From the NCBI GenBank assembly GCA_964291405.2, contig OZ219926.1:2880001-2944000 (forward strand): 64,000 nt of DNA, given 5' to 3'. The stretch's first letter is position 1. The number at the start of each line of letters is the position of its first letter. Both the position numbers and the translations under genes were made by a program. Positions 7,597 through 55,077 of the stretch are shown one piece after another. Under the pieces are notes generated by a model that did no database searches, was not told where the DNA came from, and was given only the letters and a program-made list of their open reading frames with translations. This stretch comes from Thermodesulfobacteriota bacterium. GTDB taxonomy: Bacteria > Desulfobacterota > Binatia > Bin18.

Positions 7597-7669
<73 letters not shown>

Positions 7670-18152: not shown

Positions 18153-19418
18153 TCAACCCAGCAGGTCCTCATCCCGGCGTACATAGAGGTCTGCCGCTGC
18201 CTGGACCTCGGCCTGATTATCGGGTCGGCCGTTGCTCACCAGAATCGGCGAGTCGCCGGTGCTACCGAGATCGTTGGCAAGCACACGGGCGGTGACCTTA
18301 TTCCGGCTGGTGTGACTGTGCGCCGTTCCGCCTGCGCCCTGCATGACAACGGCCGGAGACTTGCCGTTGAAAACATTCCGGGAGAGCGTCGCGACAACCT
18401 CGTTGTCCGTGGTCTCGACGTTGTCCAGGCCGGACCCACCGACCAGACGGACCGCGTGTGCCTTCCAGTCGGCGATCTCATTCCGATCAATCACAATGCG
18501 ACAGGTGTTATGCCGGGCCTCTCCCAGCGCCCCGTGAACGGCGATGCCCACCGGACTGTTGGTAATCGTATTGCCCGAAAGCAGGGCGGTGAGCTGGCCG
18601 TGCTGGGGTACTTTCTCCGCCAGGGGAATGGCGGTCAGGATGTTGATACCAAACTGCTTGTTACCCCGGAGGGTGTTGTCCGCGACGGTCAGCGCCTGCC
18701 GATTGGACGACGGTCCGAAAGAACACGAGAACAGCAGGCCGCCCCGTTCACAGTCTTCAATCGTATTGCGCAGGATCGCGGCGTCAAAGGACACCGCGTC
18801 CGGTTCGGGAAAGAAACAGATAAAGGCGAGACCGTCGGCAAAGCAGCGGCGCATGGTATTGCCGGTAATGAGGAGATGGTTGCGCTGGTCGGCCCGGGCT
18901 TCGGCAAAAATATGGTGGCCCTGGCGCGCGCCCGTTCCGCGCGGCAGGGATGGCTCGAAGCGTTCCAGTCCGTTGTCTGAAAAATCACAGTCTGTTATGG
19001 TCGCCGCAGTGACCCCGCATAAGAAAATACCGTGATCCCCGTGGTTGCTGATCGTGCACGCGCGAACCGTAACCGAGGCGGACGGGGGAACGCCAATTCC
19101 GTGCCCACCGCCCTGGGTGACGGTCACGCCACTCAGACTCGTCCCGTCTGCGAGGACGACGACCGACTGCTCCGGTTGGATCGGATGAAAGGACGGGGCG
19201 AAGTGTCCCTCTCCGTCAATAATGCATTCCTGTCTGGCAGCGCCTTGAACCCGGACGCCGGGCGGAACGGTTAAGGGCAAACGCTCTCCGGTCAGAGACG
19301 GGGAGTAGCGGCCGGGCTCGATCAGGATAACATCGTCCGGCTGAGCCTGCCGGAGGGCTTCTGAGAGCGAACGCGCATCGGCATGAGCCGCGTGAGGCGA
19401 GACAAAAATCGTCTTCAT
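18153..19418 (-). CDS. Right-handed parallel beta-helix protein (DUF1565-like)
   Basis: SLSEALRQAQPDDVILIEPGRY N-terminus; repeated N..GI/GNT strands. Confidence 0.75.
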   Translation of the reverse strand: MKTIFVSPHAAHADARSLSEALRQAQPDDVILIEPGRYSPSLTGERLPLTVPPGVRVQGAARQECIIDGEGHFAPSFHPIQPEQSVVVLADGTSLSGVTVTQGGGHGIGVPPSASVTVRACTISNHGDHGIFLCGVTAATITDCDFSDNGLERFEPSLPRGTGARQGHHIFAEARADQRNHLLITGNTMRRCFADGLAFICFFPEPDAVSFDAAILRNTIEDCERGGLLFSCSFGPSSNRQALTVADNTLRGNKQFGINILTAIPLAEKVPQHGQLTALLSGNTITNSPVGIAVHGALGEARHNTCRIVIDRNEIADWKAHAVRLVGGSGLDNVETTDNEVVATLSRNVFNGKSPAVVMQGAGGTAHSHTSRNKVTARVLANDLGSTGDSPILVSNGRPDNQAEVQAAADLYVRRDEDLLG

Positions 19419-19490
19419 CGTTCTTCCTTAAAGGTGCCGGTCGGCATGAAAAAGGTACTGAAACGCCTGGAAAACATACGGAGAAGGGTC

Positions 19491-19521
19491 AAAAAAAGGC
19501 CCGAATGAAAACATCCGGGCC
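19491..19521 (-). terminator. Minus-strand intrinsic terminator
   Basis: Minus strand reads GGCCCGGATG-TTTT-CATTCGGGCC-T7; its G-U pair forms only on this strand. Confidence 0.75.
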
Positions 19522-19612
19522 TAGGGCTCAAGACGGCGGGGTTCCCACACTCCGGACGTCTCTACGCACCCAGCACCCTAGCGAACTCCACCCCCAGGGT
19601 CAATACCTGAAG
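19491..19612 (-). ncRNA. Candidate small RNA of about 120 nt
   Basis: 5' hairpin CTTCAGG/CCTGGGG, CTAGGG/CCCTAG and GAGACG/CGTCTT stems, terminator; the 5' end is an estimate. Confidence 0.5.
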
Positions 19613-19782
19613 ATTCACAAAAAGTATTGTTTGTGTCGCATTGGTCCAGAGCTGCGGGGCGAATTTAGAACATTCTGTTATTTTGGGACAGCTATTTTTA
19701 ACAACACCATTTTAAGTTGACGAACTCCTTATTTCAAAAGGACTTTTTTTTGAAAAAACTTTTCCAAAATGCCATTTGGTTA

Positions 19783-19811
19783 TTGACGCTTTTCTGTTGT
19801 TTTGGTAAAAA
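19783..19811 (+). promoter_or_regulatory. Sigma70-like promoter
   Basis: TTGACG-17nt-TAAAAA in an AT-rich tract. Confidence 0.6.
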
Positions 19812-19816
19812 ATTGT

Positions 19817-20047
19817 TCCAGAAAGAGCTTTGCCTAGGGTTCACGGTCAGGAATGGGGTTCCCAACCAAGAATGGAAGTCGTTGAAAATGAGCGTAAGGG
19901 AGCGAATGCGCTTCCCTAGCGGTTCTTTGAACTTCCACACTCCGGACGCGGACGCTACTGCGAGGTAGACAGGATCAACCCGGAAGTTGATCCACAGGCG
20001 AGCGAATTCAAACGAGGAAGGCCCTGTGAAGGGCCTTCCTATTTTTT
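19817..20047 (+). ncRNA. Candidate structured RNA or leader of about 230 nt
   Basis: Lies between promoter and terminator; helices GGAAGT/ACTTCC, GGGAGCG/CGCTTCCC, GGATCAAC/GTTGATCC; no convincing ORF. Confidence 0.55.
20015..20047 (+). terminator. Intrinsic terminator
   Basis: 11-bp perfect stem AGGAAGGCCCT-GTGA-AGGGCCTTCCT followed by ATTTTTT. Confidence 0.85.
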
Positions 20048-20059
20048 AGGTAGTAACTC

Positions 20060-20443
20060 ATGGCAACCGATCCAACCGAAAAGCTTCCCAAAATCAAGGT
20101 CTCCAGCGCCTATCCGGGCGAGTGGTATATCGTTGAGGTAGACGGTGGCGATGGTGACTTATCCATGGAGCTGCGTCGTCCGGTGGGTGAGGAGGACTCA
20201 GATGTCTTCCACCTCACGATTACAACAACGGCGCGGCCGTTTGATGTCAAAAGCGCGCGTGACGGCGGAGAGGCGCATACCCACGAAGGCGCTCATTCGA
20301 CCCACCTGACCTTTACCAGTCCCCAGGCGGTCTGGCCGGATTTTGTCCGCTGTGTGCAAGCCCTTGCCAGCATCTTTGATACGCTGGCAACCACGCCGCT
20401 CGACCGCGAAAAGGTCCGCGAGAATCTGCTGAAGAAAAAATAA
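20060..20443 (+). CDS. Hypothetical protein
   Basis: 127-aa ORF with ATG and plausible codon usage; no recognised motif. Confidence 0.65.
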   Translation: MATDPTEKLPKIKVSSAYPGEWYIVEVDGGDGDLSMELRRPVGEEDSDVFHLTITTTARPFDVKSARDGGEAHTHEGAHSTHLTFTSPQAVWPDFVRCVQALASIFDTLATTPLDREKVRENLLKKK

Positions 20444-20475
20444 TGGGGCCGAGCCGTCCGTCTCCGTCGCGCTAT

Positions 20476-20531
20476 AAAGAGTAAACGTGTCCAGCATTAT
20501 CCATGCTCATTGGAGGACACGTTCACTCTTT
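20476..20531. repeat. Palindromic element of about 55 bp, family AAAGAGTAAACGT (copy 1)
   Basis: AAAGAGTAAACGTGTCC...GGACACGTTCACTCTTT. Confidence 0.85.
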
Positions 20532-54894: not shown

Positions 54895-55077
54895 CCCCTC
54901 CCCACACCCCTGAACATTACCGGGGTTTCTGGCGGGGTATCAATCATGTTGCTGGGGTGTTCCCACGAGCCCAAAAGAGCCTTCTTTCGGGTATGATAGT
55001 CCTCTGCTTACAGGATTCGAGATTTTCCTAGCTGCCTGTACGGCAGTGAACACGTAGATTGTATCGGCATTCAACTT

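Follow-up and report, generated by a model that had tools for sequence, protein, structure and literature searches.

A small RNA predicted to repress H1-like mRNAs in one Candidatus Binatia family, and the ORF-less paralogue of its target encoded beside it

Introduction

The Chlamydia small RNA (sRNA) IhtA represses translation of hctA, the gene for the histone-like protein Hc1, and its hairpin loop is reported to occlude the start codon (PMC4355289, PMC8343073, PMC3469542). Here we analyse a pair of divergent RNA units which may represent a control of a similar kind in an uncultured member of Candidatus Binatia. They are found at 19491-20047 of a 64,000-nt stretch of DNA (G000:C3:2880001-2944000 of a 4.95-Mb assembly, 97.5% complete), which in its full length will be called the window. 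The minus unit is an sRNA of about 78 nt and the plus unit a large RNA of about 229 nt. The sRNA is predicted to pair with the mRNA for a lysine- and alanine-rich (K/A-rich) basic protein which resembles histone H1 in composition (H1-like).

The likeness to IhtA and hctA lies in the kind of target and in the way it would be bound: the predicted target is K/A-rich and H1-like, and the loop and arm of the sRNA are predicted to lie over its ribosome site and AUG in 22/22 pairs. IhtA is an Rfam family, and the sRNA described here has neither homology to it in sequence or structure nor an Rfam match. The predicted pairing, of 13-15 bp and about 12 bp more, is much longer than the 6-7 nt of IhtA, and unlike IhtA the sRNA adjoins a paralogue of its target. 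The likeness of the target to Hc1 and Hc2 is compositional only, the family scores being below cut-off.

Divergent type I toxin-antitoxin (TA) loci, for example zorO/orzO and dinQ/agrB, are the other obvious comparison. By the definition of the type (PMC11264685), the toxin typically has fewer than 60 amino acids (aa) and is hydrophobic, and tisB has a standby site 100 nt upstream of the ribosome site (PMC7708055). An earlier note on this DNA, made from the sequence alone, had seen a resemblance to loci of the tisB/istR type, and the comparison is apt. As in tisB/istR-1, a small open reading frame (ORF) and an sRNA are adjacent and diverge from one intergenic region which they share. The mRNA has a structure in which its 5' and 3' parts pair, and in what we take to be the ancestral layout the complementarity to the sRNA lies in the 5' untranslated region (UTR), well upstream of the ribosome site. 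Unlike a type I toxin, the peptide of the sister genera is an 18-22 aa polycation and the window's copy is ORF-less, and the sRNA also has a strong predicted trans target elsewhere in the genome.

Bacterial antagonists of sRNAs (sponges or decoys), among them mRNA-derived and cis-encoded ones, are described in e.g. PMC8687705 and PMC12721325. Like these, the large RNA carries sequence complementary to the target-binding region of the sRNA. Unlike the sponges described there, this candidate decoy corresponds to an entire paralogue of the target gene which lacks an ORF, has a promoter of its own and adjoins the sRNA gene, and its complementarity, through which it would titrate the sRNA, is split by an inserted hairpin. 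The large RNA is also like an attenuator or leader in having an intrinsic terminator directly upstream of an ORF, here one of 127 aa. The locus belongs neither to IhtA/hctA nor to type I TA, and a full-text literature search with "Binatia" plus "small RNA" found nothing.

The explanation which we favour, with a probability of roughly 0.6, is that the sRNA is a translational repressor of H1-like mRNAs and the large RNA an ORF-less paralogue of the target which serves as a decoy and/or as a leader. It proposes a base-pairing sRNA of about 78 nt, independent of a chaperone and restricted to one Candidatus Binatia family, whose loop and 5' arm would pair with mRNAs for K/A-rich H1-like basic proteins. 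The pairing covers an upstream site, the ribosome-binding site and the start codon and should therefore block translation. The sRNA gene would be a partial copy of the 5' end of its target, transcribed in antisense. The ancestral target would be an adjacent, divergent K/A-rich ORF of 18-22 aa, and in the window's genome the coding target would be an 85-aa paralogue. The large RNA would descend from the neighbouring target by loss of the ribosome site and the ORF, while still being transcribed from a conserved promoter and kept by selection; its three blocks of complementarity (36 nt; 12, 10 and 14 nt) may titrate the sRNA. Because its terminator ends 12 nt before the 127-aa ORF, the large RNA may also be the leader of that gene. 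Conservation, complementarity, co-variation and co-loss come from comparison and computation; repression, titration and any effect on termination are what we infer from them.

The sRNA and its distribution

The sRNA (Table 1) consists of a short 5' tail, stem-loop 1 (GAGACG/CGUCUU and CGG/CCG, with the loop AGUGUGGGAAC), the linker UUGAGCCCUAGG and an intrinsic terminator with its U run. Its single-sequence fold has -34.7 kcal/mol (z -3.6). In the alignment of 25 sRNA sequences (A2) one pair of the terminator covaries, being G-C in 10, A-U in 10 and G-U in 5. The pairing region, UGUGGGAACCCCG, varies in only three of the 25, at one position each; it is complementary to a site in the 5' UTR of the H1-like mRNA and to blocks 2 and 3 of the large RNA.

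The earlier note had taken the minus unit to be about 120 nt long. This is at variance with a motif inside that unit, TTGACC-N17-TAnnnT, which is present in 38 of 38 loci (36 found by regular expression, two by eye); since we read this conserved motif as the promoter, the transcript becomes one of about 78 nt, although one RNA contig is longer by read-through. The -10 occurs as TAGGCT, TAGGGT, TACCCT, TACGCT or TAGTCT, with T1, A2 and T6 invariant, and the spacer varies in sequence at a fixed length of 17. A scan for consensus promoters did not call it. A reading of 19569-19611 as structured RNA was given up: no consistent helix was seen by eye, and the promoter spacing and the invariant T1, A2 and T6 were found instead.

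A covariance model (R1) built from A2 scores 106 bits at the window and was used on a family sample of 55 genomes and a class sample of 151. Strong matches, 67.8-106.1 bits, were obtained in 37 of the 55 family genomes, one copy in each except for two in G010. All 12 strong matches of the class sample fell inside one Candidatus Binatia family; 30 of the 42 class-sample genomes with any match reached only 24-33 bits, and the nine of these which were inspected were terminator hairpins only. The two copies in G010 differ over the whole locus (L007 on C4; L024 at the start of C1, a contig end) and that assembly has 5% contamination; the double locus may reflect a strain mixture rather than a true duplication.

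The earlier note recognised no Rfam family, and an Rfam search at gathering score and at E<=10 agrees. No Rfam 15 family reached the gathering score in the RNA pair, the matches in the window being a tRNA and a CRISPR repeat only, and at E<=10 the best E-value within 19380-20120 was 0.35, with the alignments shown covering the terminator hairpin only. Neither was a match to Hfq (PF17209) found in the window's genome, while the control genomes expected to match did so; this fits a long pairing which needs no chaperone. Chlamydiae are not known to have Hfq either.

Four loci of a clade without the sRNA (L056, L057, L060 and L061) have on the plus strand, in the short intergenic region upstream of the homologue of the 127-aa ORF, the sequence ..GGAGTGTGGCAGGTTC.., followed by a conserved GGGCCTTTTCTTTTT; the former resembles the loop region of the sRNA in reverse orientation.

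The H1-like mRNA as predicted target

Outside the locus itself the longest match in the genome to the complement of the sRNA is the 15-nt GGGGTTCCCACACTC at C3:1557329. It lies 7 nt before AGGAGGTCACTATG (AGGAGG-TCACT-ATG) of an 85-aa ORF, 1.34 Mb from the RNA pair (locus L098/L099, G000:C3:1557229-1557699), and nowhere else in the genome is such a site combined with a ribosome-site and AUG context. Behind the ORF come the 3' motif and the terminator which the short-ORF units of the sister genera, described below, also have. Its scores with Pfam HC2 (E 0.034, 14.7 bits, cut-off 40) and NCBIfam hist_H1_lk_Burk (E 4e-4, 20.7 bits, cut-off 80) are below cut-off, and it had no protein-database match at E<=0.001, probably because of its composition. 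Among relatives the length of the H1-like gene varies between 22 and 88 aa through gain and loss of AKK/PAKK repeats. The H1-like 5' UTR (UCCGCCU) can pair with its own 3' UTR (AGGCGGA), as is the case in the window's large RNA.

The H1-like locus is present in 42 of the 55 family genomes, and GGGGTTCCCA stands intact just before the ribosome site in 21 of 21 aligned 5' UTRs, from genomes which have the sRNA or are incomplete. When each sRNA was paired with its cognate mRNA the best duplex was of the same kind in all 22 pairs: loop with site, UCC with GGA of the ribosome site, GAC with GUC of the spacer and GCGUAG with CUAUGC over the AUG. The part between loop and site comprises 12-15 uninterrupted bp in 20 of the 22, and 10+4 with one mismatch in G003 and G005. 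The free energy of the cognate duplexes (dG) is -39 to -55 kcal/mol, as compared to -21 to -29 (sd about 4) with shuffled mRNA, and co-folding of the sRNA with the H1-like leader gives a difference (ddG) of -24.6 against -7.1 +/- 3.1 for the controls.

A recurring match in other genera, GGGTTCCCTCCTTT..AAAGGAGG, was considered and turned out to be a nested palindromic repeat element and not a ribosome site. The element occurs in multiple copies (L174-L178 in G044, G184, G186 and G187) in the form …CCCCCTTT..AAAGGGGG.. GGGTTCCCTCCTTT..AAAGGAGGG.., resembles repetitive extragenic palindromes (REP) or miniature inverted-repeat elements (MITE), and has GGGTTCCC in common with the sRNA site, by chance or by descent.

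Co-occurrence and co-variation of sRNA and site

Both the sRNA and the site are found in 33 of the 55 family genomes, the sRNA only in 4, the site only in 4 (all of them at most 83% complete) and neither in 14. Five near-complete genomes of the window's genus are without the sRNA, and all five are without an intact site. The form of the loss differs between them. In G012 and G016 the site has diverged. In G022 it has decayed, the ORF is truncated to 22 aa, and the sRNA locus is a deletion between two copies of GGGGTTCC. The H1-like gene is a pseudogene in G019, with site, ribosome site and ATG all mutated, and in G013 it is deleted between enolase and the next gene. Placed on a quick tree of one short gene, that of the 127-aa ORF, the co-losses of sRNA and site amount to at least four separate events.

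Changes within the paired sequences are also matched. The window's genus has GAG-UGUGGG in the loop arm of the sRNA and CCCACA-CUC in the target, both one nucleotide shorter than in the other genera, which have GAGUUGUGGG and CCCACAACUC, respectively. An A->G change in the sRNA of G166 is matched by U->C in its target. Mismatches between sRNA and site also exist, e.g. in G005, G003 and G002.

The large RNA and its coding relatives

Sister genera have a plus unit with the same promoter, 5' blocks (CCGCCTAGGGCTC ... GGGGTTCCC), 3' motif and terminator as the large RNA, to which are added AGGAGG, five bases, an ATG and a K/A-rich short ORF (sORF) of 18-22 aa of the MAAKKAAAKKPAKKAPAKKK type. As promoter, 5' blocks, 3' motif and terminator are common to both, we regard the large RNA as a paralogue of the target. 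The only hydrophobic residue of the sORF peptide is alanine, and there is no hydrophobic segment. An identical peptide is encoded by different DNA in five loci, and codon differences are in excess at synonymous positions (161 synonymous and 60 non-synonymous in 24 same-length pairs, some of which are misaligned by an indel); the sORF is thus truly coding. The sRNA and the sORF unit stand back to back in 15 of 15 sORF-bearing loci.

The window's genus has lost ribosome site and ORF, as has one further lineage (L052), and in the genus no reading frame is conserved. We do not read the window's plus unit as coding: four of the 19 genus loci in the alignment have ATA in place of its ATG at 19890, and indels of 1-2 nt interrupt the frame. 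A K/A-rich ORF of 12-45 aa was not found anywhere in the window's genome. The statement of the earlier note that no peptide is present therefore holds for the window's plus unit and fails for the sister genera, whose 18-22 aa ORF is polycationic and not hydrophobic.

The fold of the large RNA (-90.3 kcal/mol, z -4.3) comprises a helix closing its 5' and 3' parts, a hairpin on the 5' side in which block 2 lies, a middle hairpin of variable sequence, three small hairpins on the 3' side and the terminator. The consensus structure, the closing helix and five hairpins, has 58 pairs, seven of them with compensatory changes. A 194-nt metatranscriptome contig spans exactly 19825-20018 and does not enter the 127-aa ORF. 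The promoter of the large RNA, TTGACG-17-TAAAAA at 19783-19811, and its 11-pair terminator at 20015-20040 had both been noticed earlier. The terminator scan finds the latter, as it does the 11 pairs and T run of the minus strand at 19522-19497; the promoter was missed by the promoter scan, and a regular expression finds it with the same spacing in 31 of 31 related loci.

Mean pairwise identity among 18 genus loci is 0.94 for the sRNA, 0.66 for the spacer and 0.90 for the control region between the units, and in the large RNA 0.93 for the 5' part, 0.71 for the middle hairpin and 0.88 for the 3' part. Neutral proxies are lower: adjacent spacers have 0.66-0.67, and within the 127-aa ORF the third codon positions have 0.79. 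The sRNA and the 5' and 3' parts of the large RNA exceed these proxies (0.66-0.79), and both RNAs are therefore under purifying selection. In the oriented genus alignment the small unit and the promoter region are highly conserved, and the conserved ends of the large unit bracket a variable hairpin. The 581-nt stretch as a whole is present in 23 of the 28 genomes of the genus.

Blocks shared by the two units

The earlier note listed four blocks repeated on the same strand in the two units. A repeat search over 701 nt finds each of them in its place: 14/14 nt, CCACACTCCGGACG, at 19545 and 19935 (block 3); 10/10 nt, GGGGTTCCCA, at 19538 and 19855 (block 2); 11/12 nt, GCCTAGGG(C/T)TCA, at 19519 and 19832 (block 1); and 8/8 nt, CCCTAGCG, at 19576 and 19914 (block 4). 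Blocks 1-3 are conserved, and a 14-mer, a 10-mer and a 12-mer within 560 nt and in a shared order are far beyond chance. Block 4 we take to be a chance match: the same 701 nt hold four other exact two-copy families of 8 nt, its copy in the small unit overlaps the -10 of the sRNA promoter, and its copy in the large unit is unconserved, within the variable hairpin. The similarity of the blocks is due to shared ancestry; that it has been conserved argues for function. Since the units are transcribed in opposite directions blocks 1-3 of the two RNAs are complementary, as the earlier note had said. It had also set against a function the possibility of a local duplication with an insertion of about 70 nt flanked by CCA. 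This is probably how the large RNA originated, yet the blocks are co-conserved under purifying selection.

The halves of the contiguous pairing region of the sRNA correspond to blocks 2 and 3, which in the large RNA are parted by the 70-nt hairpin. Both hairpins described in the earlier note, GAGACG/CGTCTT of the sRNA with blocks 2 and 3 in or beside the loop and GGAAGT/ACTTCC between these blocks in the large RNA, were recovered in the folds. The inserted hairpin is absent from the sister genera, where about 10 nt lie between the two pairing segments; several of these genera have a weaker second segment about 10 nt after block 2. The core of block 2, GGG(T/C)TCCC, occurs in the plus unit of 30 of the 30 loci having one, at 276-346 nt from the copy in the sRNA gene, the value of 276 nt belonging to L023, which carries a deletion in the spacer.

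The splint geometry which the earlier note envisaged, the sRNA bridging the hairpin of the large RNA, is exactly what RNAcofold predicts: nt 2-50 of the sRNA would pair in colinear order with blocks 3, 2 and 1, leaving the GGAAGU/ACUUCC hairpin as a side arm, with a ddG of -23.0 kcal/mol, where 30 shuffled bodies of the sRNA gave -4.2 +/- 3.5 and reached -14.1 at best. When local duplexes were predicted for the arm and loop of the sRNA, the best one was with block 3 in 11 of 13 tested loci of the genus and with block 2 in the remaining two, and with block 2 again in 11 of 11 loci of other genera (z over all loci -0.6 to -6.0). Whole-length RNAduplex runs of the sRNA against the plus RNA gave sprawling structures (z +0.3 to -3.1) and were replaced by windowed duplexes and co-folding.

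Surroundings of the RNA pair

The pair sits between two divergent genes, that of a beta-helix protein on the minus strand and the 127-aa ORF on the plus strand (Table 1). The 127-aa ORF had no Pfam or NCBIfam match, and an AlphaFold2 model of its protein from 20 sequences was unusable (mean predicted local distance difference test, pLDDT, 53). Its synteny with the plus unit is kept in 42 loci. G013 has lost both RNAs, and there the plus promoter abuts the ORF, which probably depends on this promoter and on read-through of the terminator.

Table 1. Features of the RNA pair, its neighbours and the predicted target (window positions unless a contig is given)
Feature	Position	Strand	Remarks
Beta-helix protein gene	18153-19418	-	Pfam Beta_helix 1.3e-20; downstream of the sRNA terminator
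sRNA, about 78 nt	19491-19568	-	5' end inferred from promoter, 3' end from terminator
sRNA terminator stem-loop	19497-19522	-	11 pairs, 7 of them G-C, then T run
sRNA pairing region	19538-19558	-	loop and 5' arm of stem-loop 1; corresponds to blocks 2 and 3 on the plus strand
sRNA promoter	19575-19603	-	-35 TTGACC 19603-19598, 17-nt spacer, -10 TAGGGT 19580-19575
Fast-evolving spacer	19612-19660		identity 0.66; about 40 nt deleted in L023
Shared control region	19661-19818		identity 0.90 in the genus; boxes conserved across family and genera
Plus promoter	19783-19788 and 19806-19811	+	-35 TTGACG and -10 TAAAAA
Large RNA, about 229 nt	19818-20047	+	ORF-less paralogue of the K/A-rich sORF and H1-like mRNA
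Block 1 in large RNA	19832-19843	+	GCCUAGGGUUCA; pairs with sRNA linker; also 5' strand of closing helix
Block 2 in large RNA	19855-19864	+	GGGGUUCCCA; family-wide core complementary to sRNA loop
Inserted hairpin	19865-19934	+	closed by GGAAGU/ACUUCC; identity 0.71, stem kept
Block 3 in large RNA	19935-19948	+	CCACACUCCGGACG; complementary to 5' arm of sRNA stem-loop 1
Large-RNA terminator	20015-20047	+	11 pairs, T run; three stem pairs with compensatory changes; ends 12 nt before the 127-aa ORF
127-aa ORF	20060-20443	+	without known family; always downstream of the plus unit
85-aa H1-like gene	G000:C3:1557362-1557619		AKK/PAKK repeats, K/A/P-rich; downstream of enolase

The control region contains the boxes TAGAAC-N3/4-CTG(T/C)TA and CATTTTAAGT and long A/T tracts, and the promoter scan gives a second sigma-70-like site on the minus strand at 19737-19709. 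Possibly it holds a site for a regulator or a third start; inspection of the region by eye gave no supportable reading as a sigma-54-like promoter or a repressor box.

Elsewhere in the window an Rfam search found a tRNA gene at 7597-7669 (plus strand, 70.1 bits) and one CRISPR-DR4 match at 55024-55051 (40.2 bits), so that a CRISPR array is probably near. A long inverted repeat (aaagagtaaacgtgtcc ... ggacacgttcactcttt) lies at 20470-20530 between the 127-aa ORF and a convergent gene for a VWA-domain protein. Between 71 and 91% of the sampled words of the window are present in runs labelled sponge or coral metagenome.

Discussion

Several observations weigh against the explanation given in the Introduction. 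The RNA evidence consists of a few assembled metatranscriptome contigs, which are unreliable for strand and ends, and run X18, covering the whole region including the promoters, is DNA-like and therefore uninformative. X17, from a relative with about 93% identity, is the only contig over the whole sRNA; it extends from 19672, about 100 nt upstream of the sRNA and with adapter sequence beyond, through the sRNA terminator into the beta-helix gene. A low-depth contig from run X15 (19400-19550) crosses the same terminator, the pieces of this run at 19273-19550 and 19583-19785 having a depth of 2-3 and not being attributable to a transcript. Contig X17 suggests a second start upstream together with read-through, and the sRNA may, additionally or alternatively, belong to a long 5' leader of the beta-helix gene. 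As the 5' end of the sRNA is deduced from the promoter, it should be added that a start further downstream would lose the pairing with the AUG.

As to the target, by our estimate about 0.3 matches of 15 nt are expected by chance in a genome of 4.9 Mb, so the length of the match is not rare in itself. The counts of co-occurrence are phylogenetically non-independent. Four genomes (G165, G136, G176 and G179, the last 98% complete) have the sRNA without a detected site, and in G012 and G016, which lack the sRNA, the H1-like gene is still intact. The evidence for the decoy role is complementarity, conservation and co-folding, and from these we would assign that role to the large RNA, which would thereby set the level of free sRNA. 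Against it, block 3 is only partial in the two deepest members of the genus (L015 and L016), and G003 and G009 have sRNA and target and no large RNA, which is therefore dispensable for the function of the sRNA. The likeness of the blocks may partly be kept by gene conversion, and recombination has indeed occurred in G022, in the form of the deletion between its two GGGGTTCC copies.

Four other explanations have to be weighed. The one closest to the earlier note postulates a self-contained device, in which the sRNA splints blocks 1-3, remodels the large RNA and thereby controls the terminator before the 127-aa ORF, i.e., an antisense-controlled attenuator. The co-fold does reproduce the splint (ddG -23.0 vs -4.2 +/- 3.5), and block 1 is the 5' strand of the closing helix by the terminator, so that binding of the sRNA would free the 3' strand; further, the ORF starts 12 nt past the T run, its synteny with the plus unit is kept in 42 loci, and in G013, despite the deletion of both RNAs, it still has the plus promoter immediately before it. 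However, the consensus fold has no antiterminator pairing, for which no dedicated search was made, in sister genera 60-400 nt separate the terminator from the ORF, the sRNA persists in G003 and G009 in the absence of the large RNA, and the sole clean RNA contig stops at 20018, short of the ORF. The best-supported partner of the sRNA is the H1-like mRNA 1.34 Mb away, and the self-contained two-RNA system of the earlier note cannot be upheld in that form. We consider an attenuator unlikely; it is compatible with repression of H1-like mRNAs and does not exclude it. A type I TA system of the tisB/istR-1 kind is slightly less likely still. The toxin would be the polycationic K/A-rich peptide or protein, the sRNA would be the antitoxin, and the toxin ORF of the window would be inactivated. 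The divergent adjacent layout and the closing helix between 5' and 3' parts fit, as does the position of the sRNA site in sister genera, some 90 nt before the ribosome site of the sORF, which resembles that of the tisB standby site. It fits as well that G013, G019 and G022, in which the sRNA is lost, have a target which is lost or decayed. But the peptide has no hydrophobic residue besides alanine, G012 and G016 keep the intact H1-like gene in the absence of the sRNA, and the window's plus unit has no ORF.

It could also be argued that the large RNA is a decaying relic of the sORF unit, whose blocks owe their likeness to common descent and occasional gene conversion and have no function in pairing. 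The sRNA gene and the plus leader are indeed diverged direct repeats, block 3 and the tandem CGGACG after it resemble a patch of the sRNA gene acquired by conversion, G022 shows the deletion between the GGGGTTCC copies, and the ORF has been lost in the genus. A relic would not be expected to have 5' and 3' parts with 0.93 and 0.88 identity, against 0.66-0.67 in spacers and 0.79 at third codon positions, a fully conserved promoter, helices kept through seven compensatory pairs, a discrete metatranscriptome contig and a block 2 kept in 30/30 plus units across genera with diverged flanks, and we regard this explanation as very unlikely. Finally, the blocks could be DNA operators of one regulator and not sites of RNA pairing, as they lie on the same DNA strand and the control region between the genes is strongly conserved. 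This we can hardly believe: the blocks are downstream of the promoters, within transcribed sequence; the distal copy, located between promoter and ribosome site, is bordered by additional complementarity to the sRNA across ribosome site and AUG; the distal site decays where the sRNA gene itself is lost; and a matched indel is to be expected from base pairing.

Translational repression by the sRNA, with the large RNA as decoy and/or leader, remains the explanation which we prefer, and it may be carried one step further. Speculatively, one gene, that of an H1-like polycation, would have given rise to a circuit of three RNAs, a partial antisense copy of its translation-initiation region becoming the sRNA and a second full copy, deprived of its ORF, becoming a dedicated decoy. 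Decoy and sRNA would be transcribed divergently from a single highly conserved control region, in a TA-like arrangement of type I in which the "toxin" is a histone-like polycation and its mRNA has been exapted as an anti-antitoxin. This is a possible model which we hold only tentatively. If it were true, the ratio of two promoters would set the amount of a nucleoid-condensing protein made from a gene 1.3 Mb away.

Significance

The sRNA and the H1-like mRNA are the first well-constrained sRNA-target pair for the uncultured Candidatus Binatia. Nature has provided a set of knock-outs, with at least four independent co-losses, and the matched indel points to direct pairing. The parallel to IhtA and Hc1 of Chlamydia is an independent one and suggests that control of histone-like polycations by sRNAs is recurrent. 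The locus illustrates how an sRNA can originate from an antisense copy of the start region of its target and, if the large RNA is a decoy, also how a target gene can become an sRNA antagonist through loss of its ORF. For the annotation of these genomes it means that the sRNA, the non-coding plus RNA and K/A-rich genes of 18-88 aa, which gene callers may miss, need to be added.

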